64,000 bases of DNA from an uncultured Candidatus Binatia bacterium (GCA_965232605.1 CBDDQA010000006.1:159077-223076), one strand, 5' to 3'; positions 1-23,513 are shown, counted from the first letter of the stretch. The notes: generated by a model not told the origin, from the sequence alone. Made by a program: numbers and translations.

Positions 1-54
1 TTTATCGAGGACGCGAAGGCGGTGTCCCAAGCGATACAACAATCAACATCATGA
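1..54 (+). CDS. 3' end of an upstream gene (partial). Its stop overlaps the hsdS ATG (ATGA). Genomic context suggests a type I RM methylase subunit (hsdM), but identity is not determinable.
   Basis: Open frame from position 1 ending in TGA at 52-54, overlapping the ATG at 51. Translational-coupling arrangement typical of hsdM-hsdS. Confidence 0.3.
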   Translation, partial: FIEDAKAVSQAIQQSTS

Positions 55-2243
55 CCCGGCAACTCAACGTCAAACCCCGCCACCGGGAACAGCTTACCCG
101 CTTGCTGCACGAGTATCTGCCCGGCGTAGAAGTGTGGGCCTACGGCAGCCGCGTCAACGGCAGAAGCCACGAAGGTAGCGACCTGGACCTGGTATTACGC
201 GCTCCCGGTCTCGCCAAAATCGGCCCCGCGCAACTGGCCGCATTCAACGAAGCAGTGCAGGAATCCACCATCCCCTTTCTCATAGAAGCGCGGGATTGGG
301 CACGGTTGCCGGACAGTTTTCAGCGGGAGATTGAGCGGGAGTATGTGGTGTTGGTGGAGAGGGAGGGGCGGGGTGGAGCGGGTGAGTTGCTTGAAACAAC
401 ATTGGGCGATCTCATCGACATCAAGCATGGCTTTGCCTTCAAAGGCCATGACATTCACGACGAACCATGCGGAGATGTGCTACTAACCCCTGGTAATTTC
501 GCTATTGGTGGGGGATTCAAGGGTGACAAGTTCAAGTACTACGATGGGTCCGTTCCAGAAGAGTTCGTGCTTCACGAAGGTGACTTGCTCGTCACTATGA
601 CTGACCTTAGTAAACAATCGGATACGCTCGGCTATCCAGCATTCGTACCTGCGCTTACGGATGGCCGCCGTTACCTGCATAATCAGCGTCTTGGCAAAAT
701 TTCTCTTAAAGAAAACTCAGAAATAGACCTGAGGTATATCTATTACGTTATGTGTGGCGCAGATTATCGCCACGAGGTACTAGCGAGCGCGACCGGGACC
801 ACTGTCAAGCATACGTCGCCCGACCGGATCAAGCGGTTTCGCTTCCTTCCCGTTCCGTTACCCGAACAGCACACCATCGCCCACATCCTCAGCACCCTTG
901 ACGACAAGATCGAATGCAACCGCCGCATGAACGCCACCCTCGAAGAGATGGCGCGGGTGCTCTTCAAGAGTTGGTTCATCGACTTCGACCCCGTACACGC
1001 CAAAGCCACCCTCCGGCGGCACGCCGCCACCAAAATCACTCCCCCCTTGAGGGGGAGTCGGCAAGCCAAGGGCGCCAGCCCGCCGGCGCGCCGGTGGGGG
1101 GGAATCAGACGCCTCTACTCCCCGCAAACCCTCCAAAAAGCCCACGCCCTGCGCCACAACCAAACCAATGCCGAGGGCCTGCTCTGGTACTACCTCCGCG
1201 CCAAACAACTCGACGGCTACAAATTCCGCCGTCAGCAGCCCATCGGCCCGTATATTGTCGATTTTGCCTGCCTGTCCGAAAAGCTGCTCATCGAACTCGA
1301 CGGCGGCCAACACGCGGAGCGGACAGCCTCCGATGCTCGGCGAGACAGATTTTTACAGAAAAAGGGGTACAGGGTCTTACGCTTTTGGAATCATGAAGTC
1401 TTCGAGAACTGTTTCGGCGTGTTGGAGAGCATTTATGCTGCCCTGCCTCATCACCCTCCCCTGCCTCATCACCCTCCCCTTGAGGGAGGGTCGAAAGACG
1501 CCAGTCTTTCGGGGAGGGGGTCCCCCCCACCGCCTCAGCCGGCGCCTAGCGGCTTGGCTTCTGCGACTCCCCCTCCAGGGGGGAGTGATTGGACGGTTGA
1601 GCGGGCGCGGGCGTATCTGGGCGGGATGGACCCTGGCGTTGCAGCGTTGTTCCCGGATCGTTTTGTGGATTCGGAGTTGGGGGAGATACCGGAGGGGTGG
1701 GAGGTGAAAGCGCTGGGAGAGGAGGTTGAGTTAGCCTACGGCAAAGCCCTGAAAGCAGCAGCACGGAAAGGTGGAGCCATTCCTGTGTACGGCTCAAATG
1801 GCCAGGTCGGTTGGCACGATAAGAAGTTGGCAACGGGACCAGGAATTATTGTCGGACGGAAAGGGAATCCCGGAGTAACCACATGGGTACAAAGTGATTT
1901 CTTTCCCATTGACACGACGTTCTATGTCGTACCCAAGGAAGGCCGACAAAGTCTGTACTTTTTATTCTATGCCCTGGAAAGACAGAGACTTGCAGACCTC
2001 ACTGCTGATTCTGCCGTGCCTGGCTTGAATCGCAATCTGGCCTACATGAACAAGCTGCTCATCCCTGATGGTATGACAATCGAGAGTTTTAACGATTATG
2101 CCAAGACGCTTTTCGCTCGTCGCCATCAGCTAGAGGAAGAATCCCGCACCCTCACCACCCTACGCGACACACTACTGCCGAAGCTCATATCCGGCGAACT
2201 GCGAGTCACGGACACCGAACGTTTCTTGGAATCCATGAATTAA
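51..2243 (+). CDS. hsdS: Type I restriction-modification specificity subunit HsdS with unusual architecture. It has an N-terminal minimal nucleotidyltransferase (MNT-type, GS...DxD) domain, a first target-recognition domain (TRD1), a central conserved region, an in-frame inserted DUF559/Vsr-like endonuclease domain, then TRD2 and the distal conserved region.
   Basis: The translation carries the MNT motif YGSRVNGRSHEGSDLDLVL. HsdS-like TRD and conserved-region motifs are present (LPEQHTIAHILSTLDDKIE...LFKSWFIDFDP and a C-terminal TLLPKLISGEL-type helix). The inserted segment matches the DUF559 consensus (GYKFRRQQPIGPYIVDFACLSEKLLIELDGGQHAE...GYRVLRFWNHEV). It is a single uninterrupted ORF. Confidence 0.85.
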   Translation: MTRQLNVKPRHREQLTRLLHEYLPGVEVWAYGSRVNGRSHEGSDLDLVLRAPGLAKIGPAQLAAFNEAVQESTIPFLIEARDWARLPDSFQREIEREYVVLVEREGRGGAGELLETTLGDLIDIKHGFAFKGHDIHDEPCGDVLLTPGNFAIGGGFKGDKFKYYDGSVPEEFVLHEGDLLVTMTDLSKQSDTLGYPAFVPALTDGRRYLHNQRLGKISLKENSEIDLRYIYYVMCGADYRHEVLASATGTTVKHTSPDRIKRFRFLPVPLPEQHTIAHILSTLDDKIECNRRMNATLEEMARVLFKSWFIDFDPVHAKATLRRHAATKITPPLRGSRQAKGASPPARRWGGIRRLYSPQTLQKAHALRHNQTNAEGLLWYYLRAKQLDGYKFRRQQPIGPYIVDFACLSEKLLIELDGGQHAERTASDARRDRFLQKKGYRVLRFWNHEVFENCFGVLESIYAALPHHPPLPHHPPLEGGSKDASLSGRGSPPPPQPAPSGLASATPPPGGSDWTVERARAYLGGMDPGVAALFPDRFVDSELGEIPEGWEVKALGEEVELAYGKALKAAARKGGAIPVYGSNGQVGWHDKKLATGPGIIVGRKGNPGVTTWVQSDFFPIDTTFYVVPKEGRQSLYFLFYALERQRLADLTADSAVPGLNRNLAYMNKLLIPDGMTIESFNDYAKTLFARRHQLEEESRTLTTLRDTLLPKLISGELRVTDTERFLESMN
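1038..1059. repeat. Perfect palindrome (ACTCCCCCC TTGA GGGGGGAGT-like) at the left border of the DUF559 insertion inside hsdS.
   Basis: Inverted repeat read directly from the sequence. A related copy lies at ~1566-1587. Confidence 0.6.
1444..1491. repeat. Two tandem 18-bp repeats (ctgcctcatcaccctccc x2, encoding PHHPPL PHHPPL) followed by a palindrome (CCCTCCCC TTGA GGGAGGG) at the right border of the DUF559 insertion.
   Basis: Direct tandem repeat and inverted repeat visible in the sequence. Confidence 0.6.
1566..1587. repeat. Second palindrome (ACTCCCCC TCCA GGGGGGAGT), a partner of the one at 1038-1059.
   Basis: Inverted repeat in the sequence. It encodes a Pro/Gly-rich linker in the hsdS frame. 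Confidence 0.55.
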
Positions 2244-2402
2244 AAGACTGATAGCGCCTATAAGAATACGCATTCAAGCAAGGGCAATAGAAGCATCTGA
2301 CTCTGCGAAATTCCGCGCCCACCTGCCCCGAATCCACCGTCGAAACAACATCCAGCATCGTCTATACTGGCCCGTTATCGTTTGGTTGTCGGAGGTGTAA
2401 CC

Positions 2403-2672
2403 GTGGAAATTTCCAAACCCCAGCGTATATGGACCGTAGCCGAAGCGAAGGCCCACCTGTCGGAAATTTTGCGGCTGGCCGAAGAGGAGGGGCCGCAGTA
2501 TATCGGTAAGAGAAACACTTTCGTCGTGGTGCCCAAACGACTGTGGCAAAAGCAATCGCCGCCGCGCAAGCCCTTTGGCCAGTGGCTCATTGAGAACGTA
2601 CCACGCGGTACCAATCTTGAGGTTTCGGACCGGCGCTCCAATCGCCCGATTCCCTTCATTGACATTGAGTAA
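2403..2672 (+). CDS. Orphan Phd/YefM-family antitoxin-like protein sitting between hsdS and hsdR. No cognate toxin is adjacent.
   Basis: The N-terminal motif VEISKPQRIWTVAEAKAHLSEILRLAEEEGPQYIGKRNTFVVVP resembles Phd/YefM antitoxins. A GGAGG RBS lies 6 nt upstream of the GTG at ~2403. The tracked ORF starts at the ATG at 2382. Confidence 0.5.
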   Translation: MEISKPQRIWTVAEAKAHLSEILRLAEEEGPQYIGKRNTFVVVPKRLWQKQSPPRKPFGQWLIENVPRGTNLEVSDRRSNRPIPFIDIE

Positions 2673-2765: not shown

Positions 2766-5700
2766 ATGACCGCCTTCACCGAATCCACTGTCGAAGACGC
2801 CACCCTGACCTGGCTCGAAAGCCTCGGCTGGAACATCGCCCACGGGCCGGACACCGCGCCCGATACGCTGGGCGCGGAGCGTGGCGACTACGGAACGGTG
2901 GTGCTGGAACGGCGGCTGCGCGATGCTCTCGTCCGACTCAACCCCACCCTGCCGTCCGAAGCCCTGGACGACGCTTTTCGGAAGCTGACCCACCCGGAAG
3001 GACCAACGCTCGAAGCCCGTAACCGCGCCTTTCACCGGATGCTCGTGGATGGCGTAACGGTGGAGCGGCGTACAGATGACGGGACGGTCCGTGGGGCGCA
3101 GGCGCGAGTGATCGACTTTGATACGCCCGTCAATAACGACTGGCTGGCGGTCAATCAGTTTACGGTTGTTGAGAACAAGCACGAACGCCGGCCCGATGTG
3201 GTGCTGTTCGTCAATGGCCTGCCGCTCGGAGTGGTCGAACTCAAGAACCCGGCGGACGAAGACGCAACCATCTGGACCGCCTGGCAACAACTCCAGACCT
3301 ATAAGGCCGAACTGCCGACGCTGTTCAGCATGAACGCGGCCCTGTTGGTCTCGGACGGAGTTGAAGCGCGCATTGGCACGCTGACCGCCGGGCGGGAGTG
3401 GTTCAAGCCCTGGCGCACAATCTCGGGCGAAACCCTGGCCGACCCGCACCTGCCCCAATTGCAGGTCATGCTCGAAGGCGTGTGCCGACCGGGACGCTTT
3501 CTTTCGCTGATCCGCGACTTCATTGTGTTCGAGGATGACGGCAGCGGGGCATTGGTCAAGAAAATGGCCGGCTATCACCAGTTCCACGCGGTCAGGGTTG
3601 CCGTGACCGAGACGCTACGGGCTACAGAAGTGGAATTGGCGGAAGGCCGGATTTCCAGTGGGTTTGGCCGCTACGAGTCGGGCCGCAAACCGGGCGGCGA
3701 GCCCGGCGACCGGCGTATCGGCGTGGTGTGGCACACGCAGGGATCGGGCAAGAGCCTGACCATGGCCTTCTATGCCGGACGCATCATCCGTGAGCCGGCG
3801 ATGCAGAATCCGACCATCGTGATGCTGACCGACCGCAACGACCTGGACGACCAACTTTTCGGTACGTTCGCGCGTTGCCAGGACCTGTTGCGCCAGCCGC
3901 CGGTGCAAGCGGCAAGCCGGGCCGACCTGCGCGCCAAGCTCGCAGTCGAGTCGGGCGGCGTGGTCTTTACGACCATTCAGAAGTTCTTTCCTGATGAAGA
4001 GGGTGACCGACATCCGGTCCTGTCGGAGCGGCGCAATATCGTGGTCATTGCCGATGAGGCCCACCGCAGCCAGTACGACTTCATCGACGGCTATGCGCGG
4101 CATATGCGGGACGCCCTGCCCCACGCCTCGTTTGTCGGTTTCACCGGCACGCCGATTGAGTTGCAGGACGCCAACACCCGAGCCGTGTTTGGCGACTATA
4201 TCAGCATCTACGACATCCAGCGCGCGGTCGAGGACAAAGCGACCGTGCCGATCTATTACGAGAGTCGGCTGGCCAAACTGACGTTGGACGAGAACGAGCG
4301 GCCGAGGATCGATCCCGACTTCGAGGACGCAACCGAGGGCGAGGAGATCGCTCGTCAGGAAAGGCTCAAAACCAAATGGGCGCAACTCGAGGCGATTGTC
4401 GGCACGGAAAAGCGTGTGCAGCTCATCGCCCAGGATATCGTTACCCACTTCGAGCGGCGCCTGGAAGCGCTCGACGGCAAGGCCCTGGTCGTCTGCATGA
4501 GCCGGCGCATCTGTATCGAGCTGTACCGTGAACTGGTGCGGCTGCGCCCGGACTGGCATCGGGAGGAAGACGACCAGGGACAGATCAAAGTCGTGATGAC
4601 CGGTTCGGCATCCGACCCTCCCAACTGGCAGCCGCATATCCGCACCAAGTCGCAGCGCGAGGCCCTGGCAAAACGCTTCCGTTCCCCCGGCGACCCGCTC
4701 CGCCTGGTGCTGGTACGCGACATGTGGCTGACCGGCTTTGACGCGCCGAGCCTGCACACCATGTATGTGGACAAGCCCATGCGCGGCCACGGCCTGATGC
4801 AGGCCATCGCCAGGGTCAACCGGGTGTTCCGGGACAAGCCGGGCGGGCTGGTGGTGGACTACCTGGGGCTGGCGCAGGAATTGAAACGCGCGCTGACAAC
4901 CTACACCGAGAGCGGCGGCAGCGGAGGAACCGCATTCGACCAGGAGCAGGCGGTAGAGGTGATGATGGAGAAGTATGAGGTCTGTTGCGACCTGCTCCAC
5001 GGCTTTGACCGCTCGCAGTGGAGCACCGGCGCGCCAACGGAACGGCTGGCCCTGTTGCCGGCGGCGCAGGAACACATCCTGGCCCAGGAGAACGGCAAGG
5101 AGCGTTATCTTGTTGCCGTACGGGAGCTGTCTCAGGCATTTGCCCTGGCCGTCCCGCATGAAGCCGCGTTGCACATTCGGGACGAGGTCGCATTCTTTCA
5201 GGCCGTCCGGTCGGTCCTCGCCAAGCGAGCGCCCGGGGATACCCGTCCCGAGGAAGAGTTGGACCACGCGGTACGCCAGATCGTTTCGCGCGCCGTGGCC
5301 TCGGAAGGGGTGCTCGACATCTTCTCCGCCGCCGGGCTGGAGAAACCCGATATCTCGGTTCTGTCGGATGAATTCCTGGCCGAGGTGCGGGACATGCCGC
5401 AGCGCAACCTCGCGGTCGAACTGTTGCAGAAATTGTTGAAAGGTGAACTCGCCGTCCGCCGCCGGAAAAACCTTGTCCAGGCACGGTCGTTCGCCGAAAT
5501 GCTGGAACACACCCTGCGGCGCTATCAGAACCGGGCCGTTGAAGCCGCGCAGGTGATAGAAGAACTGATTCAACTCGCCCAGGAGTTGCGCGAGGCCAGC
5601 GCGCGGGGCGAAAAACTCGGCCTGTCGGAAGACGAGGTCGCGTTCTATGACGCGCTCGAAACAAATGACAGTGCGGTTCAGGTGCTCGGCGATGAAACCC

Positions 5701-5906
5701 TGCGCGATATCGCCCGTGAATTGGTGCAAACCGTGCGTAATAACGTCACCATTGACTGGACGCGGCGCGAGAATGTCCGCGCCAACCTGCGCCGCCTGGT
5801 TAAGCGCATTCTGCGCAAGCACGGTTATCCGCCTGACAAGCAGGAACGAGCGACCCGGACCGTACTGGAACAGGCCGAGGTGCTGTCCGCCGGCTGGGCG
5901 GTTTAA
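2766..5906 (+). CDS. hsdR: Type I restriction enzyme R subunit (HsdR), an SF2 helicase/endonuclease.
   Basis: Canonical HsdR N-terminus ([29 protein letters not shown]), Walker A motif GSGKSLT, DEAH box [11 protein letters not shown]. Length 1046 aa. Confidence 0.95.
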
Positions 5907-6997: not shown

Positions 6998-7096
6998 GCC
7001 TTGACCCCCGGATATAAACGCGCGATGGTGCCGGAACTGCCACAGTCGGAGGGAAGCCAATGACCACGGTCGGCACGGGCAAAATGGTCGGCGCCC
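6998..7096. repeat. Copy 2 of the ~99-bp direct repeat. This is the functional coxL-like promoter/RBS/start.
   Basis: See copy 1 (5935-6033). Confidence 0.8.
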
Positions 7097-9441
7097 AGGT
7101 GAAACGGGTCGAAGACCCGCGGGTGCTGTTGGGTCACAGCCAGTATGTCGATGATATCCACCTGCCCGGCGCCCTCGGGGTCGCGTTTGTCCGCAGCCCC
7201 TACCCGCATGCCCGGCTGCTCACGGTCGATGTCAGCGCCGCTCAAGCGTCTCCAGGGGTAGAGGCGGTCTTGACCGGGGCGGATGTGACCCAGGCGATCC
7301 GCCCCCTGCGCGTGGAGTATGATCCGGCCAAGGCCCCGAAACATAAACCGTGCAACTGGTCGGTGTTAGCCCAGGGCAAGGTTCGCTTCGTGGGAGAACC
7401 GGTGGCGGTCGTTGTCGCCTCGGACCGCTACACGGCAGAGGATGCCGCGGCTGGCGTGACAGTCGAGTATGAGCCCCTGGAGGTTGTGCGCGATATCGAA
7501 CAGGCCATGCAGCCGGACGCCCCGCTCATCCATGAGGAATGGGGCGACAATCTCATGCAGACGGTGGACATGCAGGCCGGCGCGATTGCCCAGGCTTTTC
7601 AGGCGGCAGATTGCATCGTGGCCGAGCGCTTTGCGACCGGTCGGCATGTGGCGCTGCCCATGGAAGCCCGTGGCTGTCTGGCCCACTATGAGCCGGCTTC
7701 AGGCTCCCTGACACTGTGGTCCTCGACCCAGGTGCCGCATCTGATGCGGGCTCACCTGGCCCGCCTGCTCGACTTTCCCGAGCACCATATTCGGGTCATC
7801 GCCCCGGATGTCGGCGGGGGGTTCGGACCCAAAGCCTACGTCTATCCCGAGGAAGTCCTGCTGACCTTTCTTGCCAAGCATATCGGCCGCCCGGTCAAGT
7901 GGATCGAAGACCGACGCGAAAACCTGTCCGCCTCGACCTTGCAGGCCAAGCAGCAAGTCGTGCAGGCGGAACTCGCCCTGACCAGGGAGGGGACTATCCT
8001 GGGGGTGAGGGGGCGTTTTATCTGCGACGTGGGGGCCTACTCGGCCTATCCGTGGGGCTCTGCCCTGGAGGCCGGCATGGCGGCTTCGGCCTTCCCAGGA
8101 GGCCCCTATAAGGTCCCGGCCTTCCGCTGCGAGGCCCTGTCGGTTGTGACTAACAAGACCACGAGTGGGGCCTATCGTGGGGTGGGTTTGCCGGTCAGCA
8201 TTCTGGTCATGGAACGCCTGCTCGACCTGGGGGCACAGAAACTGGGGCTCGACCCGGTCGAGCTGCGCCTGCGTAATATGATCCGCAAGGAGGAACATCC
8301 CTATCAGACCATCACCGGGGTTGAGATCGAAAGCGGCAGCCACCGGGAGGCTCTGCAAAAGGCCCTGGGCATGCTCGACTACCCGGCTTTCCGGGCCGAG
8401 CAGCAACAGGCGAGACAACATGGGCGCTACCTCGGCGTTGGCCTGGGCTGTTATGTCGAGAGCTCGTCCTACAGCTATCGCAGTTTTGAGCCGGTCGGCA
8501 TCACCTGGGGCGGCTATGAATCGGCTACCGTACGCATAGACGCAAACGGCAAGGTCACCGTCCTGGTCGGCACCCACTCGCACGGCCAGGGCCATGAGAC
8601 GACGTTTGCCCAGGTTGCGGCGGACGAGCTGGGTGTGCCCGTGGCTGACGTCAGGGTGATTCAGGGAGATACCACGACCGTTCCGCACGGCTGGGGAACG
8701 TGGGCCAGCCGCAGTGCCGTGCTCGGCGGCGGCGCCATTATTCAGGCGTCGAGCCAGTTGCGGGAGAAAATTCTGCGCACGGCCTCACGCCTGAGCGAAG
8801 TGCCGCAAGATGACCTTGAACTGGCCGAGGGATTAGTCCGGCGCAAGACGGATAGCCTGGTACTCATGCCGTTGCAGGACATCGCTCACCTGCTGGTTGT
8901 CCAGGCACCGGCAGGTCTACCGGAAGACGAAGAACCGGGTTTGGAGGCAACTGCGCACTACACCCCACCGCCCTGGACCCACGCCAACGCCACGGTTGTG
9001 GCGACGGTCGAGGTGGATATCGAAACCGGCTCCGTCCGGCTGCTGCGGCTGATTGTGGTCGAAGACTGCGGCACAATAATCAACCCGTTGGTGGTTGACG
9101 GACAGATCCAGGGCGGCGTGGCTCAGGGCATCGGATCGGCCCTGTACGAGCAGACGGTGTACGACGAGAACGGCCAACTGCTGACGGGGACGCTGATGGA
9201 CTATCTGGCTCCCACCGCGGTGGACGTTCCTCGGGTCGAAATCGGACATATCGAAACCCCAGCGCCGAACACGCCGCGCGGCATCAAGGGCATGGGCGAA
9301 GGCGGAGCCATTTCACCGCCGGCAGCCATAGCCAACGCCGTGGCGGACGCCCTGGCACCGTTGGGGGTACGGGTCAACGAGATTCCGCTCACCCCGGAGC
9401 GGGTTCTGGTCCTGATCGACCAGGCACGCCAGGGGGCGTGA
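7060..9441 (+). CDS. Xanthine dehydrogenase family molybdopterin-binding large subunit (CoxL/aerobic CO dehydrogenase-like). No adjacent medium or small subunits.
   Basis: N-terminus MTTVGTGKMVGAQVKRVEDPRVLLG and C-terminal GMGEGG motif. 793 aa. Confidence 0.9.
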   Translation: MTTVGTGKMVGAQVKRVEDPRVLLGHSQYVDDIHLPGALGVAFVRSPYPHARLLTVDVSAAQASPGVEAVLTGADVTQAIRPLRVEYDPAKAPKHKPCNWSVLAQGKVRFVGEPVAVVVASDRYTAEDAAAGVTVEYEPLEVVRDIEQAMQPDAPLIHEEWGDNLMQTVDMQAGAIAQAFQAADCIVAERFATGRHVALPMEARGCLAHYEPASGSLTLWSSTQVPHLMRAHLARLLDFPEHHIRVIAPDVGGGFGPKAYVYPEEVLLTFLAKHIGRPVKWIEDRRENLSASTLQAKQQVVQAELALTREGTILGVRGRFICDVGAYSAYPWGSALEAGMAASAFPGGPYKVPAFRCEALSVVTNKTTSGAYRGVGLPVSILVMERLLDLGAQKLGLDPVELRLRNMIRKEEHPYQTITGVEIESGSHREALQKALGMLDYPAFRAEQQQARQHGRYLGVGLGCYVESSSYSYRSFEPVGITWGGYESATVRIDANGKVTVLVGTHSHGQGHETTFAQVAADELGVPVADVRVIQGDTTTVPHGWGTWASRSAVLGGGAIIQASSQLREKILRTASRLSEVPQDDLELAEGLVRRKTDSLVLMPLQDIAHLLVVQAPAGLPEDEEPGLEATAHYTPPPWTHANATVVATVEVDIETGSVRLLRLIVVEDCGTIINPLVVDGQIQGGVAQGIGSALYEQTVYDENGQLLTGTLMDYLAPTAVDVPRVEIGHIETPAPNTPRGIKGMGEGGAISPPAAIANAVADALAPLGVRVNEIPLTPERVLVLIDQARQGA

Positions 9442-9484
9442 GACCGGCAAAACAGAGGAGCAGCCTCGGGTCTGAGTCCGCTCA

Positions 9485-10036
9485 TCACCTGCCGGTCTTC
9501 ATCTTGAAGCGGAAGTCGCAGTACTGGGCGCCCTTCATGATCGTTTGCGTCCGGGTCATGGTGACCTCAGGACCGCCCACCGCTTCGATATCCACGTCCA
9601 TCTCACACGTCAGCAGCGCGCCCAGCTCGGGTTCTCCCAGTTGCCGGAAGAAATCCGCGTAGCGGCAACTGGTGATATTGAACTCCCAGGCCTCTGGCTC
9701 CCGCTTGAGCGTCTCAAGGTCTACATCACCGCCGACCCGTTTCAACATGGCCTCATTGATGGCGTCCCATTTCTGCCGGGGGCTACCGGAGAGCTGGCCG
9801 CCGATTTCCTGGTAAAGCTTGCCCGACCACTCCCGCAGGGCCTGGCTGGCAATCTGGTTCGCCCGCTCCTCGCCCAACTCGGCCCGAAAGGCGCGGAGCA
9901 GAGGCACGAGCACCTGGGCTTGAATCTGGACCTTTTCAAGCAGGGAGAGACCGATCTTGCCAAACGCCGGCGCAAAAATATCCGGAGTAGCGTCCTCTTG
10001 CTGCTCGTTCGCCTTCAGATCATCGGTACTCGCCAT
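9485..10036 (-). CDS. L-2-amino-thiazoline-4-carboxylic acid (ATC) hydrolase-family protein, divergent from Rieske gene 1.
   Basis: C-terminal pattern ITSCRYADFFRQLGEPELGALLTCEMDVDIEAV...TRTQTIMKGAQYCDFRF. AGGAGG RBS before the ATG at 10036. The tracked ORF has a spurious 5' extension. Confidence 0.6.
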   Translation of the reverse strand: MASTDDLKANEQQEDATPDIFAPAFGKIGLSLLEKVQIQAQVLVPLLRAFRAELGEERANQIASQALREWSGKLYQEIGGQLSGSPRQKWDAINEAMLKRVGGDVDLETLKREPEAWEFNITSCRYADFFRQLGEPELGALLTCEMDVDIEAVGGPEVTMTRTQTIMKGAQYCDFRFKMKTGR

Positions 10037-10250
10037 AGCATTCCTCCTGTATTCATGGGCTGCACTTGGGGCAGCCGAGTTATGAGAATACCAGAGCAAA
10101 CCTCTAGGGGGCATGTCAACGAGCGGAACGCAATTAGTTCTCCGCAGCTCTTGACACAATCGATTTGAAAGATGCAGAAGGGCTGTGAGAGAGCGAGAAT
10201 TGAACCGAACGATTCTTGAGAAGATCACGCCAAAATAGGGAGGGATTGCC

Positions 10251-11444
10251 ATGCAAACCGCGACGGAGAACAGACGCTGGTCAAAGGAATACCCCGAGTT
10301 GGGGACGGGACCCGTGCCGGCGGAATCGTGCATTTCCCCGGAGTATTTTGAGCTTGAACGCGAACGGGTCTTTCGCCGTACCTGGCTCAACGTGGGCCGC
10401 GTCGATGATATTCCCAACGCGGGCGACTTTTTCGTGCGCGAGCTGGCGGTGTGTAAAACCTCGATTCTGGTCATCCGAGGCAAGGACGGCGTCATCCGCG
10501 GCTTTCACAATGTCTGCTCGCACCGTAGCAACAAGCTGGTCTGGGAAGAGCGTGGGACCTGCCGTGGGGCCTTAGCCTGCCATTTTCATAGTTGGGGGTA
10601 TAACGCCCAGGGGCAACTCACCGGCGTCCCGGACGAAGAGAACTTCCACGATATCAATAAGAGCGAGCTGGGACTCACCCCGGTGACTACCGACATCTGG
10701 GAAGGGTTTATCTTTGTCCATCTGGGTTCACAGCCCCAAGAGACGCTCACCGACTATCTGGGTGGCGTGGCTGACCAGATGAAAGGGGCCGCCTTTCATA
10801 AACGAAAACACACCCACACGTATAAAGTTGAAGAGCAGGCCAACTGGAAGGTTGCCCTGGACGCCCAGAACGAGGCGTATCACCTGCCCTTCCAGCATCG
10901 CTATTCCTTTCCCGGGATGTTCGTCCTCAAAGACAACCGCTATCTGCGTCTCTCGGGTGTGAAGCTGTATAATCATCACGCGGTCTGGTCGACCACCTAT
11001 AATTCGGAAAGTACGCCGACGCCGACTGGGGCGCTCATGAACCAGCTCAATACGGCCACCACCAACAGCCGCCTGCCCATGCTGGGGGATTTCGACTTTT
11101 TTGTGATCTTTCCCAATTTTGTCATTCTCCAGTTTCGGGGCATCGAAGACGACTATTACATGACCTATAATTTCTGGCCGCTGGCGGTGGATCGCTGCAT
11201 CTGGGAGATCAAATTTCATTTCCCGCCCGCCGAAACGGCCGGCCAGCGACTCAGCCAGGAATACCTCAAACACCGCATCTGCGATGTGCTCCAAGAGGAC
11301 GCCGTGGCGCATGAGACCCTGCAAACCGGTCTGAGCTCGCGGGCGAAAACACATCTCATCCTCCAGGATGATGAGATCCAGATTCGGCATTTTCACAAAG
11401 TGTTGGAAGACTATATGGGGTTCTTCAACGGACGGGGGCACTGA
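10251..11444 (+). CDS. Rieske [2Fe-2S] non-heme-iron oxygenase alpha subunit (paralog 1).
   Basis: CSHRSNKL...CHFHSWGY Rieske motif. Catalytic domain with E..H..YH/D ligand pattern. Confidence 0.9.
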   Translation: MQTATENRRWSKEYPELGTGPVPAESCISPEYFELERERVFRRTWLNVGRVDDIPNAGDFFVRELAVCKTSILVIRGKDGVIRGFHNVCSHRSNKLVWEERGTCRGALACHFHSWGYNAQGQLTGVPDEENFHDINKSELGLTPVTTDIWEGFIFVHLGSQPQETLTDYLGGVADQMKGAAFHKRKHTHTYKVEEQANWKVALDAQNEAYHLPFQHRYSFPGMFVLKDNRYLRLSGVKLYNHHAVWSTTYNSESTPTPTGALMNQLNTATTNSRLPMLGDFDFFVIFPNFVILQFRGIEDDYYMTYNFWPLAVDRCIWEIKFHFPPAETAGQRLSQEYLKHRICDVLQEDAVAHETLQTGLSSRAKTHLILQDDEIQIRHFHKVLEDYMGFFNGRGH

Positions 11445-11767
11445 TGGCCGAAGTGCCTCTGCCGGAGCCGTTTCAGGGCCTTGAGCCGTTCAGGGTCTGG
11501 GCCCTGGCCACGGAGCGCGAGCGTCGCGCCAAGCGTCTGTCCAGCAGCATGGAGGAGATTCAGGCGTTCTACGACGCGCTCTTTCCCCAGTTGGAGGCCG
11601 TGGTTGCCTATCTCGACCAGTTTCCGCTTGACCAACTCCCCGCACAGGCGCAGCCGCTCTACTATCTGACGCTTTCGCTGGTGGAAGTCACCAGCGCCGT
11701 AGAACTGTATCACAATCCCCATATCTTTGAGGCCATTGAGCCCGCCCGCTTCCGGCGAGTGGAATAA
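11444..11767 (+). CDS. Conserved ~107-aa protein of unknown function, translationally coupled to Rieske alpha 1. Paralogs at 28840 and 35999.
   Basis: ATGA overlap with the upstream stop. Shared motif WALATE.ER...RLSSSM..IQ..YD.L.P..EAV..YL..FP. No Cys, so not a ferredoxin. Confidence 0.6.
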   Translation: MAEVPLPEPFQGLEPFRVWALATERERRAKRLSSSMEEIQAFYDALFPQLEAVVAYLDQFPLDQLPAQAQPLYYLTLSLVEVTSAVELYHNPHIFEAIEPARFRRVE

Positions 11768-11807
11768 ACCTCTCACGAACGGTTTTCATTAGAAAGGAGC
11801 AGCGGCC

Positions 11808-12581
11808 ATGGCTGGGCAATTAGACGCAAGGGTAGCGCTGGTAACTGGTGGCGGCTCGGGCATTGGACGTGCCTCGGCGGTGGTTTTTGCCAGAGAAGGC
11901 GCCAGAGTTGTTGTTGCCGACGTGGATGAGGACGGCGGACAGGAGACGGTTCATCTGATCGAGGCGGCCGGCGGAACGGCGCGGTTCGTCCGCGCGGATG
12001 TCTCCCAGGCGGCGGAGGTGGCCGCCCTGGTCGAGCAGGCCGTTGCCACCTATGGCCGTTTGGACTGCGCCCTGAACAACGCCGGTATCCAGGGGGACAT
12101 CAAGCAGACCGCCGAGTGCAGCCAGGAGAACTGGGACCGGATTATTGCGACCAACCTGACCGGTGTGTGGTTATGTATGAAACACGAGATTCCGCCTATG
12201 TTGAGCCAGGGCGGAGGCGCGATCGTCAATACGGCCTCGAACTTCGGGCTGGTGGGCTCGAACGGGATGCCGGCCTATTCGGCCAGCAAACACGGCGTCC
12301 TCGGTCTGACGAAAACCGCGGCCCTGGAGTATGCCAAGTCCGGCATTCGGGTCAACGCCGTCTGCCCGGGGCCGGTCCAGACGCCGCTGGTCGATAAGGT
12401 CCTGGCCGCCCAGCCCGAGCTGGGAGACCAGATCATCAAAGCCATCGAGGCCAGGGAGCCGGTGGGGCGCATGGGGCAACCGGAGGAGATTGCCGAGGCC
12501 GTGGTCTGGTTGTGTTCCGCCGCGGCCTCTTTTGTGACCGGAACGGCCATGTCCGTGGATGGCGGCTTTGTCACGCAGTAG
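11808..12581 (+). CDS. SDR-family oxidoreductase.
   Basis: TGGGSGIGRA Rossmann motif, NNAG, YSASK catalytic motif. Confidence 0.9.
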   Translation: MAGQLDARVALVTGGGSGIGRASAVVFAREGARVVVADVDEDGGQETVHLIEAAGGTARFVRADVSQAAEVAALVEQAVATYGRLDCALNNAGIQGDIKQTAECSQENWDRIIATNLTGVWLCMKHEIPPMLSQGGGAIVNTASNFGLVGSNGMPAYSASKHGVLGLTKTAALEYAKSGIRVNAVCPGPVQTPLVDKVLAAQPELGDQIIKAIEAREPVGRMGQPEEIAEAVVWLCSAAASFVTGTAMSVDGGFVTQ

Positions 12582-12604
12582 CACAACAATCAGGGGAGGG
12601 AGCC

Positions 12605-13435
12605 ATGTCCAGCCAGGCGACGAGTCGCTATGCCACCATTAACGGTCTCAGGCTCCACTATGTGGAGTGGGGCGATGCGCAGGCAACGCCTCTGGTCTGT
12701 CTGCACGGCTTACGGGCCTACGGCCACTGGTTCGATGAGTTGGCCGCGGTCGTGAGCGACCGGTATCGGGTCCTGGCCCTGGACCAGCGCGGACGGGGTG
12801 AGACCGACTGGGCCGCGGACGGCGACTACACGCGGGAAGCCTACGTCTCGGATGTGGAGGCCTTTGTCGAGACGCTCCAACTCGACCGGTTCATCCTGGT
12901 CGGCCACTCGATGGGCGGTCTCAACGCCATCCACTATGCCGCGCGTCACCCCGAGCGGGTGCTGGCGCTGGGCATCCTGGACATCGGCCCGGAGATTGAC
13001 CCCGCCGGCATGCAGCGCATACGCGCCGAACTGGGGGAGACGCCGGCGGGGTTTGACTCCTGGCCGGCGGCCAAGGCGTTTCTGCAGATGCGCCATCCCA
13101 AAGCCTCGGAGGAAAACCGCCGGACGCGCCTCACCTGGATGCTCAAGGAGGACGCGGACGGCAGGATTGCGTGGCGGATAGACCAGGCCATTTTCGACCC
13201 GAACCTGAAGCCTGACGATCCACAGCAGACCTGGGACCTGCTGAGTCAGATTCGCTGCCCGACCCTGATCCTGCGCGGTGGGGAGTCGGACGTGCTGAGC
13301 GTTGACACCTGTCAAAAAATGCTCACCCGCATCCCGGACGGTCAATGGGTCGAAATTCCCGGCGCGGGTCATATGGTGCTTGAGGATAATCCCGAGGCGT
13401 GCAACGCGGCGCTGCGCGACTTCTTCAAACGTTAG
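12605..13435 (+). CDS. Alpha/beta-fold hydrolase.
   Basis: GHSMGG nucleophile elbow. GGAGGG RBS before the ATG at 12605. The tracked ORF extension overlaps the SDR gene and is rejected. Confidence 0.85.
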   Translation: MSSQATSRYATINGLRLHYVEWGDAQATPLVCLHGLRAYGHWFDELAAVVSDRYRVLALDQRGRGETDWAADGDYTREAYVSDVEAFVETLQLDRFILVGHSMGGLNAIHYAARHPERVLALGILDIGPEIDPAGMQRIRAELGETPAGFDSWPAAKAFLQMRHPKASEENRRTRLTWMLKEDADGRIAWRIDQAIFDPNLKPDDPQQTWDLLSQIRCPTLILRGGESDVLSVDTCQKMLTRIPDGQWVEIPGAGHMVLEDNPEACNAALRDFFKR

Positions 13436-13443
13436 GAGAATCT

Positions 13444-14589
13444 ATGGCTGCACCGCTCGCCCTTCAGGACTTCTCAAAAACGCGCCAGGACCTGCTGCAC
13501 GCCAGGCATTTGCCGGGCGAGTTTTACACCTCAGCCGAGATTTTCCAAAAAGAGATCGAACAGATCTTCATGAAAGACTGGCTGTGCGTCGGCCGGGTCG
13601 AGCAATACGCCAAGCCGGGCGACTACCGCGCCCTGCGGATCGCCGGCGAGCCGGTCCTGATCTGTAAGGATAAGAGCGGCCGGCTGCACGCCTTTGCCAA
13701 CGTGTGTCAGCATCGCGGGGTCGAAGTTGTCCGGGGTGAAGGGAATACCCAGGAGTTCAGCTGTCCGTATCACGCCTGGACCTACGGGCTGAACGGCGAG
13801 TTGACCGGTGCGCCCTATAGTGCACCGGTCACCACCTTCGACTGGGAGTCCTGCCGTTTGCCCACGGTTCAACTCGATACCTGGGCGGGCTATATCTTCA
13901 TTAACTTCGATCCCCAGGCGGAGAGCCTGGCCTCCTACCTCGCCGTTGACCGCGTGCAGGAAGCCGCCGGGTTTTTACACGCCGAAGACACCCGCATCGC
14001 CGACGAATACACCTTTGAGCTGGACTGCAACTGGAAATTTATCCCGGAAAACCTGATGGACATTTACCACGTCGGCGTGATTCACGGCTCGTCTTTCGGC
14101 AAGGTCTTTCCCGTAGACAAATTTCCGTTCTCCCTGACCCCGCACGGCTATCACTCGGAGTACGAGAGCCTGACCATGGCCCCGGACGGCGCCTGGCTGT
14201 TTGGCAAGGCCATGCCCTGGCTGGAGCAGAAGTCGCAGTCCTTCGCCTTTACCATCTTCATCCGGCCCAGTTTCAATATGTTTGCCCGGCCCGACATGCT
14301 CCAGCCGTGGTTCTGTCATCCCATCGCGCCGGACAAAACGCGCATTACCATCCTGACCCAATACCCGGCCGAGTGGTTTGAGCAGCCGGCCTTCGAGGCC
14401 AAGAACGCGGTGGTCAAGGATTTCATCCGGCTGGTCGCCGGCGAAGATAAGGAGATGATGCTCTCGCTCCAGAACGGCGTCGGCTCCCGCAACTTCCGCC
14501 CCGGGCCGACCATGGGCCTCGAAAAGGCCATCCACCATTTGCTGAACTCCTATCTCGATCGCATGTTCGGGGCGGAGATGGCGAGGTGA
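13444..14589 (+). CDS. Rieske oxygenase alpha subunit from a different subfamily. No small partner gene.
   Basis: CQHRG...CPYHAW Rieske motif. AGGAG RBS before the ATG at 13444. Confidence 0.9.
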   Translation: MAAPLALQDFSKTRQDLLHARHLPGEFYTSAEIFQKEIEQIFMKDWLCVGRVEQYAKPGDYRALRIAGEPVLICKDKSGRLHAFANVCQHRGVEVVRGEGNTQEFSCPYHAWTYGLNGELTGAPYSAPVTTFDWESCRLPTVQLDTWAGYIFINFDPQAESLASYLAVDRVQEAAGFLHAEDTRIADEYTFELDCNWKFIPENLMDIYHVGVIHGSSFGKVFPVDKFPFSLTPHGYHSEYESLTMAPDGAWLFGKAMPWLEQKSQSFAFTIFIRPSFNMFARPDMLQPWFCHPIAPDKTRITILTQYPAEWFEQPAFEAKNAVVKDFIRLVAGEDKEMMLSLQNGVGSRNFRPGPTMGLEKAIHHLLNSYLDRMFGAEMAR

Positions 14590-14661
14590 GTCCATCGATT
14601 CGCCCGTCTATTTTGGGTGGGCGATAATGCGCCTTCACACGCATCGGGATAGGAGGCAAGC

Positions 14662-15555
14662 ATGGAGCACGAGCGTTTCAGTTATTCACCGATTGTCGAG
14701 CGTAAACCGCTACGGTTTCCGAACGGCGCTCGCGTCGCGGTCTGGGTGATTCCCAACATCGAGCACTTTCACTTCGACAAGCCTGCGACCTCGATCACGC
14801 CGGTCACGGCGCATCTGAAGCCCGATGTCCTGAACTACTCCTGGCGCGATTACGGCGTACGGGTCGGCATCTGGCGCATGATGGAGGTCATGGATCAATA
14901 TAACGTGCCGGGTACGGTCGCCCTGAATTCGGAGGTCTGTGCGCACTATCCGCAGATCATCGAGGCCGGCAATCAGCGGCACTGGGAGTGGATGGGACAC
15001 GGCACGACGAACTCGGTGCTTCTCAACGAGCAAACCGAGGTCGAGGAACGGGCACTGATCCGGGACGTGGTAGACACCATCCGGTCGGCAACCGGGACCG
15101 CCCCCAAAGGCTGGCTGAGCCCGGCGCTGAGCGAATCCTACCGGACGCCAGACCTGCTGGCGGAGCATGGGATCGAGTACGTCTGCAACTGGGTGAATGA
15201 CGAGCAGCCCTACCCGATGCGGGTCGCCCAGGGACGCCTGATCTCCATGCCCTACTCGGTCGAGCTCAACGACATCCCGGCCTTCCTTGAGCGTGGCATG
15301 TCTGCGGAAGAGTTCTACCGGATGATCGTGGATCAGTTCGACGTGCTGTACGAGGACGGGGCCAAGACCGGGCGGGTCATGGCGATCTGTCTGCATCCCT
15401 TCCTGATCGGTCATCCCTTTCGCAGCAAATACTTCGCCAAGGCGCTCGCCCACATCACCCAGCGCGAAGAGGTGTGGATTGCCAAGGGCGGGGAGATCGC
15501 AGACTGGTATACGACCCACTATCTGGATGGGCTTGATGAGAGGGGTCAAGCATGA
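14662..15555 (+). CDS. Polysaccharide deacetylase (NodB-homology, PuuE-like) family protein.
   Basis: Family-typical length and His/Asp pattern. The stop overlaps the next start. Confidence 0.8.
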   Translation: MEHERFSYSPIVERKPLRFPNGARVAVWVIPNIEHFHFDKPATSITPVTAHLKPDVLNYSWRDYGVRVGIWRMMEVMDQYNVPGTVALNSEVCAHYPQIIEAGNQRHWEWMGHGTTNSVLLNEQTEVEERALIRDVVDTIRSATGTAPKGWLSPALSESYRTPDLLAEHGIEYVCNWVNDEQPYPMRVAQGRLISMPYSVELNDIPAFLERGMSAEEFYRMIVDQFDVLYEDGAKTGRVMAICLHPFLIGHPFRSKYFAKALAHITQREEVWIAKGGEIADWYTTHYLDGLDERGQA

Positions 15556-15806
15556 AAACGCGTAAAAGCAAGGAGCTCGGACAGTACATCGTCGTAGACC
15601 CGGACATCTGTCATGGCCAGCCGACCTTCAAGGGAACCCGGATCATGGTCAAGAGCGTCCTTGAAATGCTTGTCAAAGGCTGGGACTGGGATCGGATCTC
15701 GGCGGCGTATGATAGCCGGATCGATCACGACGCAATCGCTGAGGTCCTCTCGCTTGCGGGCGAGGCTCTCATCGAAAAGGCTGAAGAACGGCAGCGGGCG
15801 GCGTGA
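15552..15806 (+). CDS. DUF433-domain protein (antitoxin-like), pair 1.
   Basis: Motif VDPDICHGQPTFKGTRIMVKSVLEML. Overlapping start and stop with neighbours. Confidence 0.8.
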   Translation: MKTRKSKELGQYIVVDPDICHGQPTFKGTRIMVKSVLEMLVKGWDWDRISAAYDSRIDHDAIAEVLSLAGEALIEKAEERQRAA

Positions 15807-16189
15807 ACATTCTGGATGAAGACATCAGCGTCCTCGAACGAGATAGGCTCCGCGCTCGCAAGATTCACTTCCGACAGATTGGTTTTGAAATCGGTCGTTT
15901 CGGGATGAAGGATCGAGACGATATCATCCCGTTGCTGCATACTCTTCGCCGTCCAACGTTTTTCACACGCGATCACGGTTTCTACCATCCCAGCTTGATT
16001 CATTCCGCTTACTGCCTCGTGTATCTTGACGTCGCTTTCGATGAGACCGCCGAATTCATCCGCCGTTTCTTACGGCATCCCGCCTTTCGTACACAGGCAC
16101 AGCGCATGGGAAAAGTCGTCCGCGTCCACCGCAACGGGGTGAGTTACCGGCAAGTGCACATGAAAAAGGCTCAGGCGCTCCGCTGGTGA
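15803..16189 (+). CDS. Divergent DUF5615-like PIN-like protein (putative toxin partner of the DUF433 protein).
   Basis: ILDEDIS...FFTRDHGFY...LVYLDV pattern parallels the canonical DUF5615 protein at 59592-59969. Confidence 0.55.
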   Translation: MNILDEDISVLERDRLRARKIHFRQIGFEIGRFGMKDRDDIIPLLHTLRRPTFFTRDHGFYHPSLIHSAYCLVYLDVAFDETAEFIRRFLRHPAFRTQAQRMGKVVRVHRNGVSYRQVHMKKAQALRW

Positions 16190-16327
16190 CCAAGCCTCTC
16201 GTGCTGGGTTCTGCAGTTTCATTCGAATATATGCACTAGCCTTCTTAATAACAGAAGGTTAAGACTAAAAAGCTTATAGTCCAAGCACTTAGGGCCTCTA
16301 ATCGACTATAATAGAGAAAGGAGAGCG

Positions 16328-18265: not shown

Positions 18266-18339
18266 ATCAGGATCAATACGTTGACAGCACCCTCACCACG
18301 TCATACGACTGCTGACAGCAAAAAGGGGGTGCGAGACCT

Positions 18340-19332: not shown

Positions 19333-19407
19333 GGCCAGTCGCAGGGAAAAGGCAAAGGCTACGCGAAACGATTCCTGAGCATTTCCCTTCGATATCAGCA
19401 CCGGGCT

Positions 19408-20655: not shown

Positions 20656-20681
20656 GGTGTGCTCCTCAGCCTCCTCCTCGC

Positions 20682-21479: not shown

Positions 21480-21794
21480 CGTGACTTCCTACGGATATTC
21501 ATTCTCCGTGCTCTACTGCCACAATCCCGACCGAGTACAAAAATACGGGCGATATGCTCGTCCAAGAGACCATAAGCGACCCAGATCGTGTTCTCAAGCT
21601 CAGAGCGATAGTCCCAGAATGAGGTAGGACGTGGTTGGATTATTTTTGATGACCAGCAGCTCGAAGTTTTCCACGGTTGGCCTCCCGATCTGTATTTTTC
21701 GGACTGTGATAGGGAGGTCTGGTAGGTCCGGAAGATCTGATGAATCTGACAGCGCTTCCCCGGCGCAAGCCACAGACGCGGGATGTTGATCCGG

Positions 21795-23072: not shown

Positions 23073-23327
23073 GGGCCTGCCCTCCTTCATGGTCGATAGT
23101 GGTCGCCTTGGGCCACCAGACCAACTATGCGACATTATGTCATGGATGCGTGCGTTCCAGAAGATGAAGGATTGAGGACCTTTACTCGCGAATGGCTTCT
23201 TCTTCTCGCTTGCCGGCTTGACAAACCCGCCCCCCAGAAGAGTAGGCTGAATTGACCGAATACAGAGCTGACCCTGCACAATGCGGGCGATACTGCCACC
23301 CTTAGAGTAAGCGCATGGAGGGACACG

Positions 23328-23510: not shown

Positions 23511-23513
23511 ACA

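Follow-up and report, generated by a model that had tools for sequence, protein, structure and literature searches.

A Type I restriction-modification (R-M) specificity gene, hsdS, stands at the start of the 64,000-nucleotide stretch from an uncultured Candidatus Binatia bacterium analyzed here (GCA_965232605.1 CBDDQA010000006.1:159077-223076; hereafter, the window), and its open reading frame (ORF) runs straight through an insert in which a DUF559 nuclease domain lies between palindromic arms. The insert belongs to a family of structured palindromic elements that is multi-copy and crosses phyla; DUF559 is carried by one form of these elements. The same ORF begins with a minimal nucleotidyltransferase (MNT) domain. 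Taking the gene as a whole, we consider it fairly probable that it is a functional-looking HsdS that hosts a tolerated, probably self-propagating nuclease cassette, and that its MNT domain partners a HepT-like gene.

The ORF (51..2243, + strand) encodes 730 amino acids (aa) without an internal stop, in the order MNT, first part of HsdS (target recognition domain TRD1 and central helix), cassette, and second part of HsdS (TRD2 and distal helix). This order is drawn from the reading frame, Pfam, an AlphaFold model of the whole protein built on 70 homologues, and a Foldseek comparison of that model against the PDB, which recovered all three folds (HsdS, MNT, DUF559). The first-pass annotation of the window had read the three parts from a single ORF, and Pfam and Foldseek agree with it. 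Methylase_S (PF01420) matches the HsdS part in two stretches (58.1 bits; cutoff 22). TRD1 (aa 113–265; 387..845, +) lies largely within the first (aa 118–298) and TRD2 (aa 545–672; 1683..2066, +) within the second, both with a predicted local distance difference test (pLDDT) of about 90. The coiled-coil helix of the central conserved region (aa 270–318; 858..1004, +), which ends in FDPVHAK, is marked by invariant columns E272–K318 and modelled as a helix over 270–310, and that of the distal conserved region (aa 674–714; 2070..2192, +) is modelled over its full length, with R705, L708, and G715 invariant. Foldseek matches of the HsdS fold include 1YDX, 1YF2, 5YBB_D, 3OKG, and 2Y7C_A.

Between these halves lies the nuclease domain (aa 352–465; 1104..1445, +), of the Vsr-like PD-(D/E)xK fold. 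A profile search confirms its earlier naming as DUF559 (PF04480; 140.5 bits, E=2.3e-41, cutoff 20.6; match at 1131–1445, aa 361–465), and the segment also matches the Neisseria gonorrhoeae structure 3HRL (E=2.6e-30; Foldseek TM score 0.76). The window protein has D404, E415, D417, and H421, all with conservation of 90% or more across the 70 homologues. The ratio of nonsynonymous to synonymous substitution rates (dN/dS) is 0.08–0.23 for the nuclease core, 0.21 for the MNT domain against the related locus L125, and 0.23 for TRD2 with the distal helix against the related locus L128 (related loci and proteins carry L and P numbers throughout). Nuclease, TRD2, and MNT are all under purifying selection, which suggests that the host gene is no pseudogene and that the nuclease has been kept functional.

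We searched 5.8 billion proteins with the window protein and found dozens of 700–770-aa proteins from independent assemblies that carry MNT, HsdS, and DUF559 together. Sequencing error had been named in the first-pass annotation as a possible origin of the fusion, and the homopolymers at the arm borders are indeed error-prone. That assembly or sequencing error joined three separate genes has, nonetheless, next to no probability: dozens of independent assemblies with different TRDs share the same in-frame architecture, every module is under purifying selection, and the frame is intact over four homopolymer runs. The chimera is real, and the Type I specificity gene looks functional.

The cassette and its site in HsdS

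The insert occupies 1035–1589 (555 nt) and consists of structured arms of about 69 nt on either side of a DUF559 ORF that stays open throughout. Since its length is divisible by three and no stop occurs in it, HsdS is translated straight through the cassette. Two palindromes, at 1038–1058 and 1566–1586, are inverted copies of each other with one mismatch (0 expected, from 100 shuffles) and form the tips of imperfect inverted arms at 1035–1103 and 1521–1589; a third palindrome, at 1471–1491, belongs to a third, variant arm at 1468–1521. These palindromes and an 18-bp tandem repeat had all been noted before, and each is where it was placed. In a scan of the 64-kb window with R1, a covariance model of the arm, exactly these three arms were found.

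The left arm (1035..1103, +; R1 84.5 bits, E=2e-20) is of type 1, with a first hairpin ACTCCCCC/GGGGGAGT, a second, covarying hairpin, and a G-run, and is translated as ITPPLRGSRQAKGASPPARRWGG. The right arm (1521..1589, −; R1 80.4 bits, E=2e-19) is of type 2, inverted, and encodes the peptide PPPPQPAPSGLASATPPPGGSD. Nested before it in the window cassette is the extra, middle arm (1468..1521, +; R1 42 bits, E=3e-9), a variant shorter than the other two, whose first hairpin, ACCCTCCC/GGGAGGGT, is compensated; it is missing from relatives of the P0006 type. The 18-bp tandem duplication (1438..1473, +; PHHPPL PHHPPL) copies the 5′ half of this arm's first hairpin; it is found in the window, L125, L127, and L128, and not in relatives such as P0002 and P0022. 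Four homopolymers lie within the ORF (C6 1041–1046, G7 1096–1102, C7 1522–1528, and G6 1578–1583), which could slip and are likely sources of frameshift errors. Database relatives are often split directly after the insert (e.g., P0121, P0133, P0135).

Beyond the right arm follows a segment, WTVERARAYLGGMDP (1590..1634, +), that is a probable element-derived right flank. It is found only in HsdS alleles with a long linker, all of which keep at least a hairpin remnant. In L002, a copy of the cassette outside HsdS, about 50 nt 3′ of the right arm are homologous to the HsdS segment WTVERARAYLD.MD. Because this flank homology follows the L002 right arm, the right border of the cassette probably lies near window position 1634, and the long HsdS linker would itself be element-derived.

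Comparison of the 120 best relatives places the insertion precisely. This list is biased toward insert-bearing proteins and does not give true occupancy rates; within it, about 90 proteins from independent assemblies share the position of the insert and read it in frame, and more than 60 have the MNT fusion as well. The search also returned MNT-HsdS proteins without the insert, insert-bearing HsdS without MNT, and plain HsdS. By segment-wise BLAST, the relatives combine MNT, TRD1, insert, and TRD2 freely; the insert is 55–92% identical, while the TRDs may be unrelated. In the alignment to insert-free relatives there is a single insertion site, right after FDPV(H/R)AK, the residues with which the central conserved helix ends, in agreement with the earlier placement between the central conserved region and TRD2. 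The linker at this site occurs in four states among the 120 relatives: short (FDPVRAK-MEGRDTGLP..-LFPD); long, lacking DUF559 and retaining a hairpin remnant (e.g., P0108, AKAALRGGRDWSMERARAYLD); with arms and no nuclease (P0090/91 and the HsdS of L001); and with the full insert (90 proteins). In DNA alignment, the 'empty' long allele of L129 keeps a degenerate single-hairpin scar, CTGCCCTTCGAGGGGGGCGTGATTGG. The HsdS site is thus occupied in some homologous genes and empty in others, as for homing endonuclease genes.

The protein appears to accommodate the insert with little disturbance. Central helix 270–310 and distal helix 674–714 each span about 41 residues and align without gaps to insert-free relatives, while in the model the arm-encoded stretches (aa 320–354 and 468–512) have pLDDT below 50 and the nuclease forms a separately folded domain. 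The arm peptides are predicted to be disordered tethers rich in Pro, Gly, Ser, and Arg. Because the modelled insert protrudes as a loop where the chain turns after the central coiled-coil helix, a change in TRD spacing is unlikely, and HsdS assembly should be unaffected; the proposal that the insert lengthens the TRD spacer is not supported, given equal, ungapped helices and an insert in the loop between central helix and TRD2. The gene shares with canonical HsdS (EcoKI, EcoR124I, Mycoplasma genitalium 1YDX) its two TRDs, its equally long central and distal helices, and its place in an operon together with hsdR and, as seen in relatives, hsdM, and differs in its additional N-terminal MNT and an insertion of about 200 residues after the central helix.

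An intein was considered and rejected. The junctions read ...HAATK|ITPP... and ...GGSD|WTVE..., with no splice-junction residues, and no Hint or intein family is among the Pfam matches at E≤0.1.

The geometry of the arms also raises the possibility of a switch, in which programmed inversion of the DUF559 segment via the arms, or slippage at G7/C7, would turn HsdS off and on (phase variation). The arms are inverted repeats, G7 1096–1102 and C7 1522–1528 lie within the ORF, and frameshifts split many database relatives after the insert. Moreover, among predicted programmed-inversion targets, the annotation 'DUF559 domain-containing protein' is over-represented, with an odds ratio of 14 (PMC9881135); inverted arms of the kind described here would explain that enrichment. 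We regard a switch as very improbable. The arms are only 74% complementary; no recombinase gene was found next to the locus in Pfam scans of hsdR, the Phd/YefM-like ORF, and the larger ORFs at 7–25 kb; and the inverted orientation contains stops, so that only an off state would result. The frameshifted relatives appear to come largely from long-read assemblies, where homopolymer errors are common.

Arm structure and copies beyond hsdS

All arms follow one layout: an invariant first hairpin, a variable second hairpin with a GA/GA internal loop, and a GGTGGGGGG run. We measured covariation on 36 diverse arms (alignment A2), with column shuffles and slid pairings as controls. Paired cells account for 96.8% of the total, compared to 82.7% in shuffles and at most 51% in the slid controls, and 94 cells show double changes, compared to 29.8 in shuffles. 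The arms diverge by 0–4.5% where the adjacent nuclease has a synonymous divergence (dS) of 0.19–0.30, and by 12–13% where dS exceeds 1.2, so that they evolve 6–10 times slower than synonymous sites. For instance, the left arm differs at 2 of 67 positions from L125, L127, and L128 (core dS 0.19–0.30), and the right arm at 3 of 67 from L127 and L128. The peptides ITPPLRGSR, HSPLEGES, and ATPPQGGSD are one DNA palindrome read in differing frames and orientations; use of all three frames, in different proteins, places the conservation at the DNA level. The arms are constrained as nucleic acid, not as protein.

Pairing of the left with the right arm was rejected as the conserved feature, since the two are of different types that differ in the middle hairpin, are 74% complementary, and each conserve their own fold. 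With the 36 arms oriented 5′-ACTCCCCCC, about 13 G-U pairs stand against about 3 A-C mismatches. This hints that one particular strand of each arm folds and, hence, that opposite strands do so at the two ends of the cassette.

A curated ribozyme or riboswitch was likewise rejected: no Rfam family reached its gathering score in the window or in six arm-bearing loci, and weak matches to fluoride and frameshift elements were dismissed as chance. Below threshold, whalefall-1 (RF01762; gathering score 37) matches window 1469–1521 with 21.3 bits and L112 5476–5529 with 27.5 bits. The arm layout resembles that of whalefall-1, with a first hairpin of pyrimidine-rich 5′ half and UUG-type loop, a variable second hairpin, and a G-rich tail; scores under the gathering score make this a resemblance only, and whalefall-1 may be a relative of these arms. 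Whalefall-1 was described as a free-standing small RNA from whale-fall metagenomes, and no DUF559, inverted pairing, or link to coding regions was reported for it (PMC2864571). In close relatives of the window locus, small arm-like units (R1 16–28 bits) also occur in the 3′ part of hsdM (L125 7227–7341; L128 7372–7483).

Copies outside hsdS show that arms and nuclease recur together. A query with the insert alone retrieved stand-alone ORFs of 160–215 aa that share the flank peptides, ...TPPLRGSRQAKG.SPQARRWG... before the core and ...PPPHQPSP.GSASATPPQGGSD after it, and, among the nearest DUF559 homologues listed, those that extend past the core mostly have arm-encoded peptides at one or both ends. 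In the 5.4-Mb genome of L002, the cassette forms an island of 495 GC-rich nucleotides within AT-rich intergenic DNA, at a locus unrelated to restriction. Its ORF begins at base 1 of the left arm and ends immediately beyond the right arm; by direct count its left arm is about 96% identical to that of the window, and its nuclease is 71% identical. L001 has the cassette upstream of hsdM and arms only at the HsdS site of the same locus, and L104 provides a further context. When 121 cores are placed on a crude neighbour-joining tree, it requires at least 12 changes of context, from HsdS to non-HsdS or back, and the closest relatives of HsdS-borne cores include non-HsdS copies.

The arms alone are far more widespread. 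At least 120 stretches of a species-representative genome collection contain an exact match to the 21-nt hairpin ACTCCCCCCTKGAGGGGGAGT, against an estimated chance expectation of less than 1 match in 596 Gb. The metagenome-assembled genomes (MAGs) concerned belong to Nitrospinota, Nitrospirales, Gemmatimonadota, Acidobacteria, Latescibacterota, Alpha- and Gammaproteobacteria, and others, as well as to Deferribacteraceae, Ca. Versatilivorator, and Ca. Poriferihabitaceae, with several hairpin loci per genome (e.g., OZ244799.1, OY843592.1). Poriferihabitaceae are associated with sponges (PMC12859430), and the habitat is probably marine and largely sponge-associated, as judged in part by record names. 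Most occurrences are ORF-less arm(+)/arm(−) pairs, with about 20 pairs of 146–167 nt among the stretches listed. Typing by regular expression left many arms unclassified, and the rule that a pair joins one type-1 with one type-2 arm, as in the cassette, rests on the 10 fully typed pairs, each of which follows it. The family thus has the terminal inverted repeats and multiple copies per genome of a miniature inverted-repeat transposable element (MITE).

In other genomes, arms or arm pairs also lie in frame in housekeeping and restriction genes, namely those for ClpB (L037 3477–6194), EPSP synthase-Cmk (AroA and cytidylate kinase; L112 4724–6844), CheA (L075 4748–6895), a tetratricopeptide repeat (TPR) protein (L030 3050–5434), and HsdR (L044 84–3611). 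In all five they are read through as segments rich in Pro, Gly, and Ser; those in ClpB and EPSP synthase interrupt Pfam matches as insertions would, and the L044 HsdR has about 110 extra residues within its helicase domain. The exact 21-nt hairpin was absent from 2.9 million viral contigs, so a phage-borne origin is not supported. Plasmids of cultured bacteria yielded only stand-alone DUF559 genes of at most 55% identity, none of them fused to HsdS or flanked by these arms. On a Picosynechococcus sp. PCC 7003 plasmid (L130 1300–2150) and in Azospirillum brasilense (L131 1500–1575), stand-alone DUF559 genes lie between C5/G5 hairpins of other sequence families, the Picosynechococcus gene inside a DUF499/DUF1156 defence-type operon; a general association of DUF559 with hairpins may exist. 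At L008 2714–3205, a type-1/type-2 pair surrounds 492 nt of other cargo with its own internal repeats and no DUF559.

These distributions bear on whether arms and nuclease form a unit at all. Alternatively, an ordinary DUF559 domain was fused once to HsdS, and the arms are separate MITE-like repeats that accumulate around DUF559, e.g., by targeting existing hairpins; the cassette would then be immobile and the nuclease no mobilizing enzyme. Most hairpin loci do lack DUF559, arms nest and pile up side by side (L001, L104), the L008 pair holds a different 492-nt cargo, and the hairpins around DUF559 genes of cultured bacteria are unrelated to the arms. Such independence of the parts is nevertheless decidedly unlikely, because the arm-core-arm geometry, the type-1/type-2 polarity, and the right flank recur at unrelated sites and in unrelated genomes, non-HsdS copies are among the closest relatives of HsdS-borne cores, and most of the nearest DUF559 homologues listed that exceed the core have arm-encoded peptides. 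The earlier suggestion of a mobile insertion that preserved the reading frame is borne out by the same arm-DUF559 cassette at unrelated sites, by the multi-copy ORF-less pairs, and by the polymorphic HsdS site. Literature on DUF559, sponge MITEs, Vsr in sponges, and HEPN/MNT with HsdS yielded no description of the cassette, the enrichment among predicted inversion targets (PMC9881135) being its sole indirect trace there, and this family of mobile palindromic elements is apparently undescribed.

Proposed propagation of the cassette and comparison with known elements

Given the conserved arms and the existence of copies outside defence loci, we infer that the cassette behaves mainly as a selfish passenger, with DUF559 as the enzyme that propagates it. 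The cassette would use the expression of the host HsdS gene, and DUF559 would nick or cut 'empty' sites that bear arms, either as pairs or as lone hairpins. Speculatively, a copy that bears the cassette would then serve as template for repair of the break, with homology supplied by the arms, in a homing-like gene conversion. The ORF-less arm pairs of the family behave like MITEs or like the palindromic elements of Rickettsia. The Vsr/DUF559 group is known to include a group I intron homing endonuclease (PMC3424549).

Several observations weigh against this reading. Movement has not been observed, no consistent direct repeat (target-site duplication) can be defined at the borders, and the 64-kb window has a single cassette copy. 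A DUF559 core is present in only 5 distinct loci among 124 hairpin-bearing stretches, so the partnership of nuclease and arms is an association and not a demonstrated dependency. Against L128, the dS of the nuclease (0.30) equals that of TRD2 (0.27), which points to long co-inheritance rather than a new insertion, and purifying selection with long retention at one site would fit a host function equally well. Finally, DUF559 recurs in or beside restriction-like operons (in the HsdS loop, upstream of hsdM, and with DUF499/DUF1156 in Picosynechococcus), a hint of a functional link.

These points lead to the alternative that DUF559 has been domesticated as a working part of the defence system, tethered to the specificity subunit, with the arms as mere leftover linkers; it might cleave or nick DNA at the recognition site or close to it, or stand in for an inhibited HsdR. 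The low dN/dS of the nuclease core (0.08–0.23), its intact catalytic residues, and its recurrence at restriction-like operons are what a domesticated effector would show, as is the persistence of the cassette at the same site across dS above 1.2 and alongside many different TRDs, and the long flexible tethers would let the domain reach bound DNA. An effector, however, needs no arms with hairpin covariation that are conserved 6–10 times better than synonymous sites, the same cassette occupies non-defence sites, close HsdS relatives work without it or with arms only, and hsdR is intact here, so that no replacement nuclease is needed. We therefore hold domestication to be unlikely and continue to favour a selfish passenger.

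A broader reading takes DUF559 nucleases in general as the propagation enzymes of a widespread and so far undescribed class of structured-hairpin mobile elements, with whalefall-1 as a relative of the arms. Such elements would comprise arm pairs of about 150 nt and a nuclease form of about 0.5 kb, open from end to end, and would spread across phyla, notably in marine sponge microbiomes. They would colonize coding genes in frame and so leave the host protein with a nuclease built in and expressed, comparable to an intein and its homing endonuclease except that nothing is spliced. This would also account for the flagging of DUF559 genes as 'inversion targets'. We offer this wider view tentatively and find it rather doubtful.

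The cassette combines features of known kinds of element: in-frame palindromes as in Rickettsia, hairpins that flank an enzyme gene as in REP/RAYT systems, and site occupancy as for homing endonucleases. Repetitive extragenic palindromic (REP) repeats, REPINs, and RAYT transposase genes were reportedly described by Nunvar in 2010 and by Bertels and Rainey in 2011. Both there and here, hairpin repeats occur in multi-copy inverted doublets and also flank, inverted, a single-copy gene for a DNA-cutting enzyme thought to mobilize them. The enzyme there is an HUH tyrosine transposase, whereas here it is a Vsr-fold PD-(D/E)xK nuclease; here, too, the elements enter coding regions in frame and the nuclease ORF reads through the arms. 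With homing endonuclease genes and inteins, the cassette shares a nuclease ORF in frame at one conserved host site, presence/absence polymorphism, and purifying selection. It differs from them in lacking a Hint/splicing domain and splice-junction residues, so that the insert stays in the mature protein, in being bounded by structured inverted arms, and in occurring outside genes as well. In relation to Vsr and to known DUF559 proteins (PF04480; E. coli YcjD-type, NGO0050 = 3HRL), the domain matches strongly in sequence and fold and keeps D...ExDG..H, and is distinguished by being embedded in another protein between disordered tethers. DUF559 is a very large family for which a structure has been solved; it has no known role, and to our knowledge no published work reports an activity.

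The closest likeness in behaviour to the ORF-less pairs is offered by the Rickettsia palindromic elements (RPEs), which insert in frame into protein-coding genes (Ogata et al., 2000, reviewed in PMC10969869). Both are palindromic repeats of about 150 bp that lie in frame in unrelated, often essential genes and are translated at permissive surface sites. The present elements, in contrast, have a defined structure of two hairpins and a G-run with covariation, span many phyla instead of one genus, and in one form carry a complete nuclease ORF, which no RPE does. No sequence relation is to be expected.

The MNT domain, the operon, and wider meaning

The N-terminal domain (aa 1–104; 51..362, +) is an HI0073-like, antitoxin-type MNT, as indicated by Pfam, a conserved motif, Foldseek, and a pLDDT of 70–91. 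The NTP_transf_2 match at aa 14–56 is marginal, though real (23.4 bits; cutoff 21), and the Polbeta profile remains under its cutoff (19.9 bits against 26.9). The motif GS...DLD (G32 S33 ... D44 D46), however, is nearly invariant in the 70 homologues, and the fold matches HI0073 (1NO5; TM 0.87–0.90) and the MNT antitoxin 8XEO (TM 0.82). In the NCBIfam MntA equivalog model it scores 20.3 bits against a cutoff of 60, for which reason we name it MNT-type rather than MntA.

Directly upstream lies the 3′ end of a HepT-like / NTase_sub_bind (HI0074-type HEPN) toxin gene (1..54, +), assigned by similarity to the C-terminus of its L125 counterpart. Window positions 1–54 read FIEDAKAVSQAIQQSTS* in frame 1 and agree at 14 of 17 residues with the C-terminal end encoded by the PF08780/HepT-like gene that precedes MNT-HsdS in L125. 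The stop overlaps the start of the ORF by ATGA, an overlap also present in L125. There the operon runs hsdM, HepT-like, MNT-HsdS(DUF559), accessory genes, Phd, PIN, and hsdR. By these comparisons the fusion of MNT to HsdS is conserved, with a HepT-like toxin gene in front of it, and the fused frame is maintained in dozens of genomes. The fusion can break down, since in L126 the MNT is a 75-aa fragment apart from HsdS. An in-frame TTG at 387, with GGAG 7 nt upstream, is a candidate internal restart for a separate HsdS.

HEPN genes are common in R-M operons and have been proposed to act like PrrC, inactive while the R-M complex holds them (PMC3710099). The MNT domain would be the antitoxin-type partner of the upstream HepT-like HEPN, and the fusion would tie control of the toxin physically to the restriction complex. 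By analogy, we infer that the covalent MNT-HsdS link fits the PrrC-EcoprrI model of a toxin held by the R-M system, i.e., a 'second line of defence' checked by the R-M complex (PMC3710099). As in known HEPN-MNT pairs of R-M operons (HI0073/HI0074; HepT/MntA), an HI0074/PF08780-type HEPN stands beside an HI0073-type MNT inside a Type I operon. The window locus differs from these pairs in that the MNT is covalently joined to the HsdS N-terminus, falls far under the NCBIfam MntA cutoff, and follows the HEPN gene, reversing the usual order, with MNT first (PMC3710099).

Downstream of hsdS, a small Phd/YefM-like ORF (2382..2672, +; Pfam PhdYeFM_antitox 28.3 bits, cutoff 29.8) is followed by an intact hsdR that encodes a 1046-aa Type I restriction subunit (2766..5906, +; Pfam HSDR_N, SWI2_SNF2, T1R_D3-like, T1RH-like_C). 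hsdM lies beyond the window and is upstream in the relatives L125, L128, L001, and L126. At the position of the Phd/YefM-like ORF, L125, L127, and L128 have a small ORF (Phd/YefM-like in L125) together with a PIN gene. Merely 94 nt separate the Phd/YefM-like ORF from hsdR in the window, and the PIN toxin accordingly seems, by this comparison, to have been lost here. In the relatives, the gap between hsdS and hsdR (L125 10222–12992; L127 3900–6154; L128 9947–12201) forms a variable cargo bay within the Type I operon, holding DUF2806, ThsB-TIR, and 8xMP in one relative and a KAP NTPase in others. Farther along the window, 7060–24914 encodes a molybdopterin oxidoreductase, Rieske oxygenases, short-chain dehydrogenases, a UvrD-type helicase, and an amidase; these metabolic genes indicate a chromosomal locus with no large defence island on its downstream side.

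In-frame selfish palindromes have been known mainly from Rickettsia, and the elements described here represent a comparable phenomenon in many phyla, where near-identical arms in distant lineages of the same habitats point to active horizontal spread. One form brings a whole nuclease domain into host proteins, a direct route from mobile DNA to multidomain proteins, and in HsdS the loop after the central helix tolerates about 200 extra residues. For genome annotation, the elements are a source of Pro/Gly-rich pseudo-linkers and, through homopolymer frameshifts, of split genes in long-read MAGs. The gene also shows that covalent joining of an antitoxin-type MNT to HsdS is possible, which makes a model of 'toxin released on R-M attack' directly testable. 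If true, the propagation role would give DUF559 a testable function and the orphan whalefall-1 RNA motif a possible identity.

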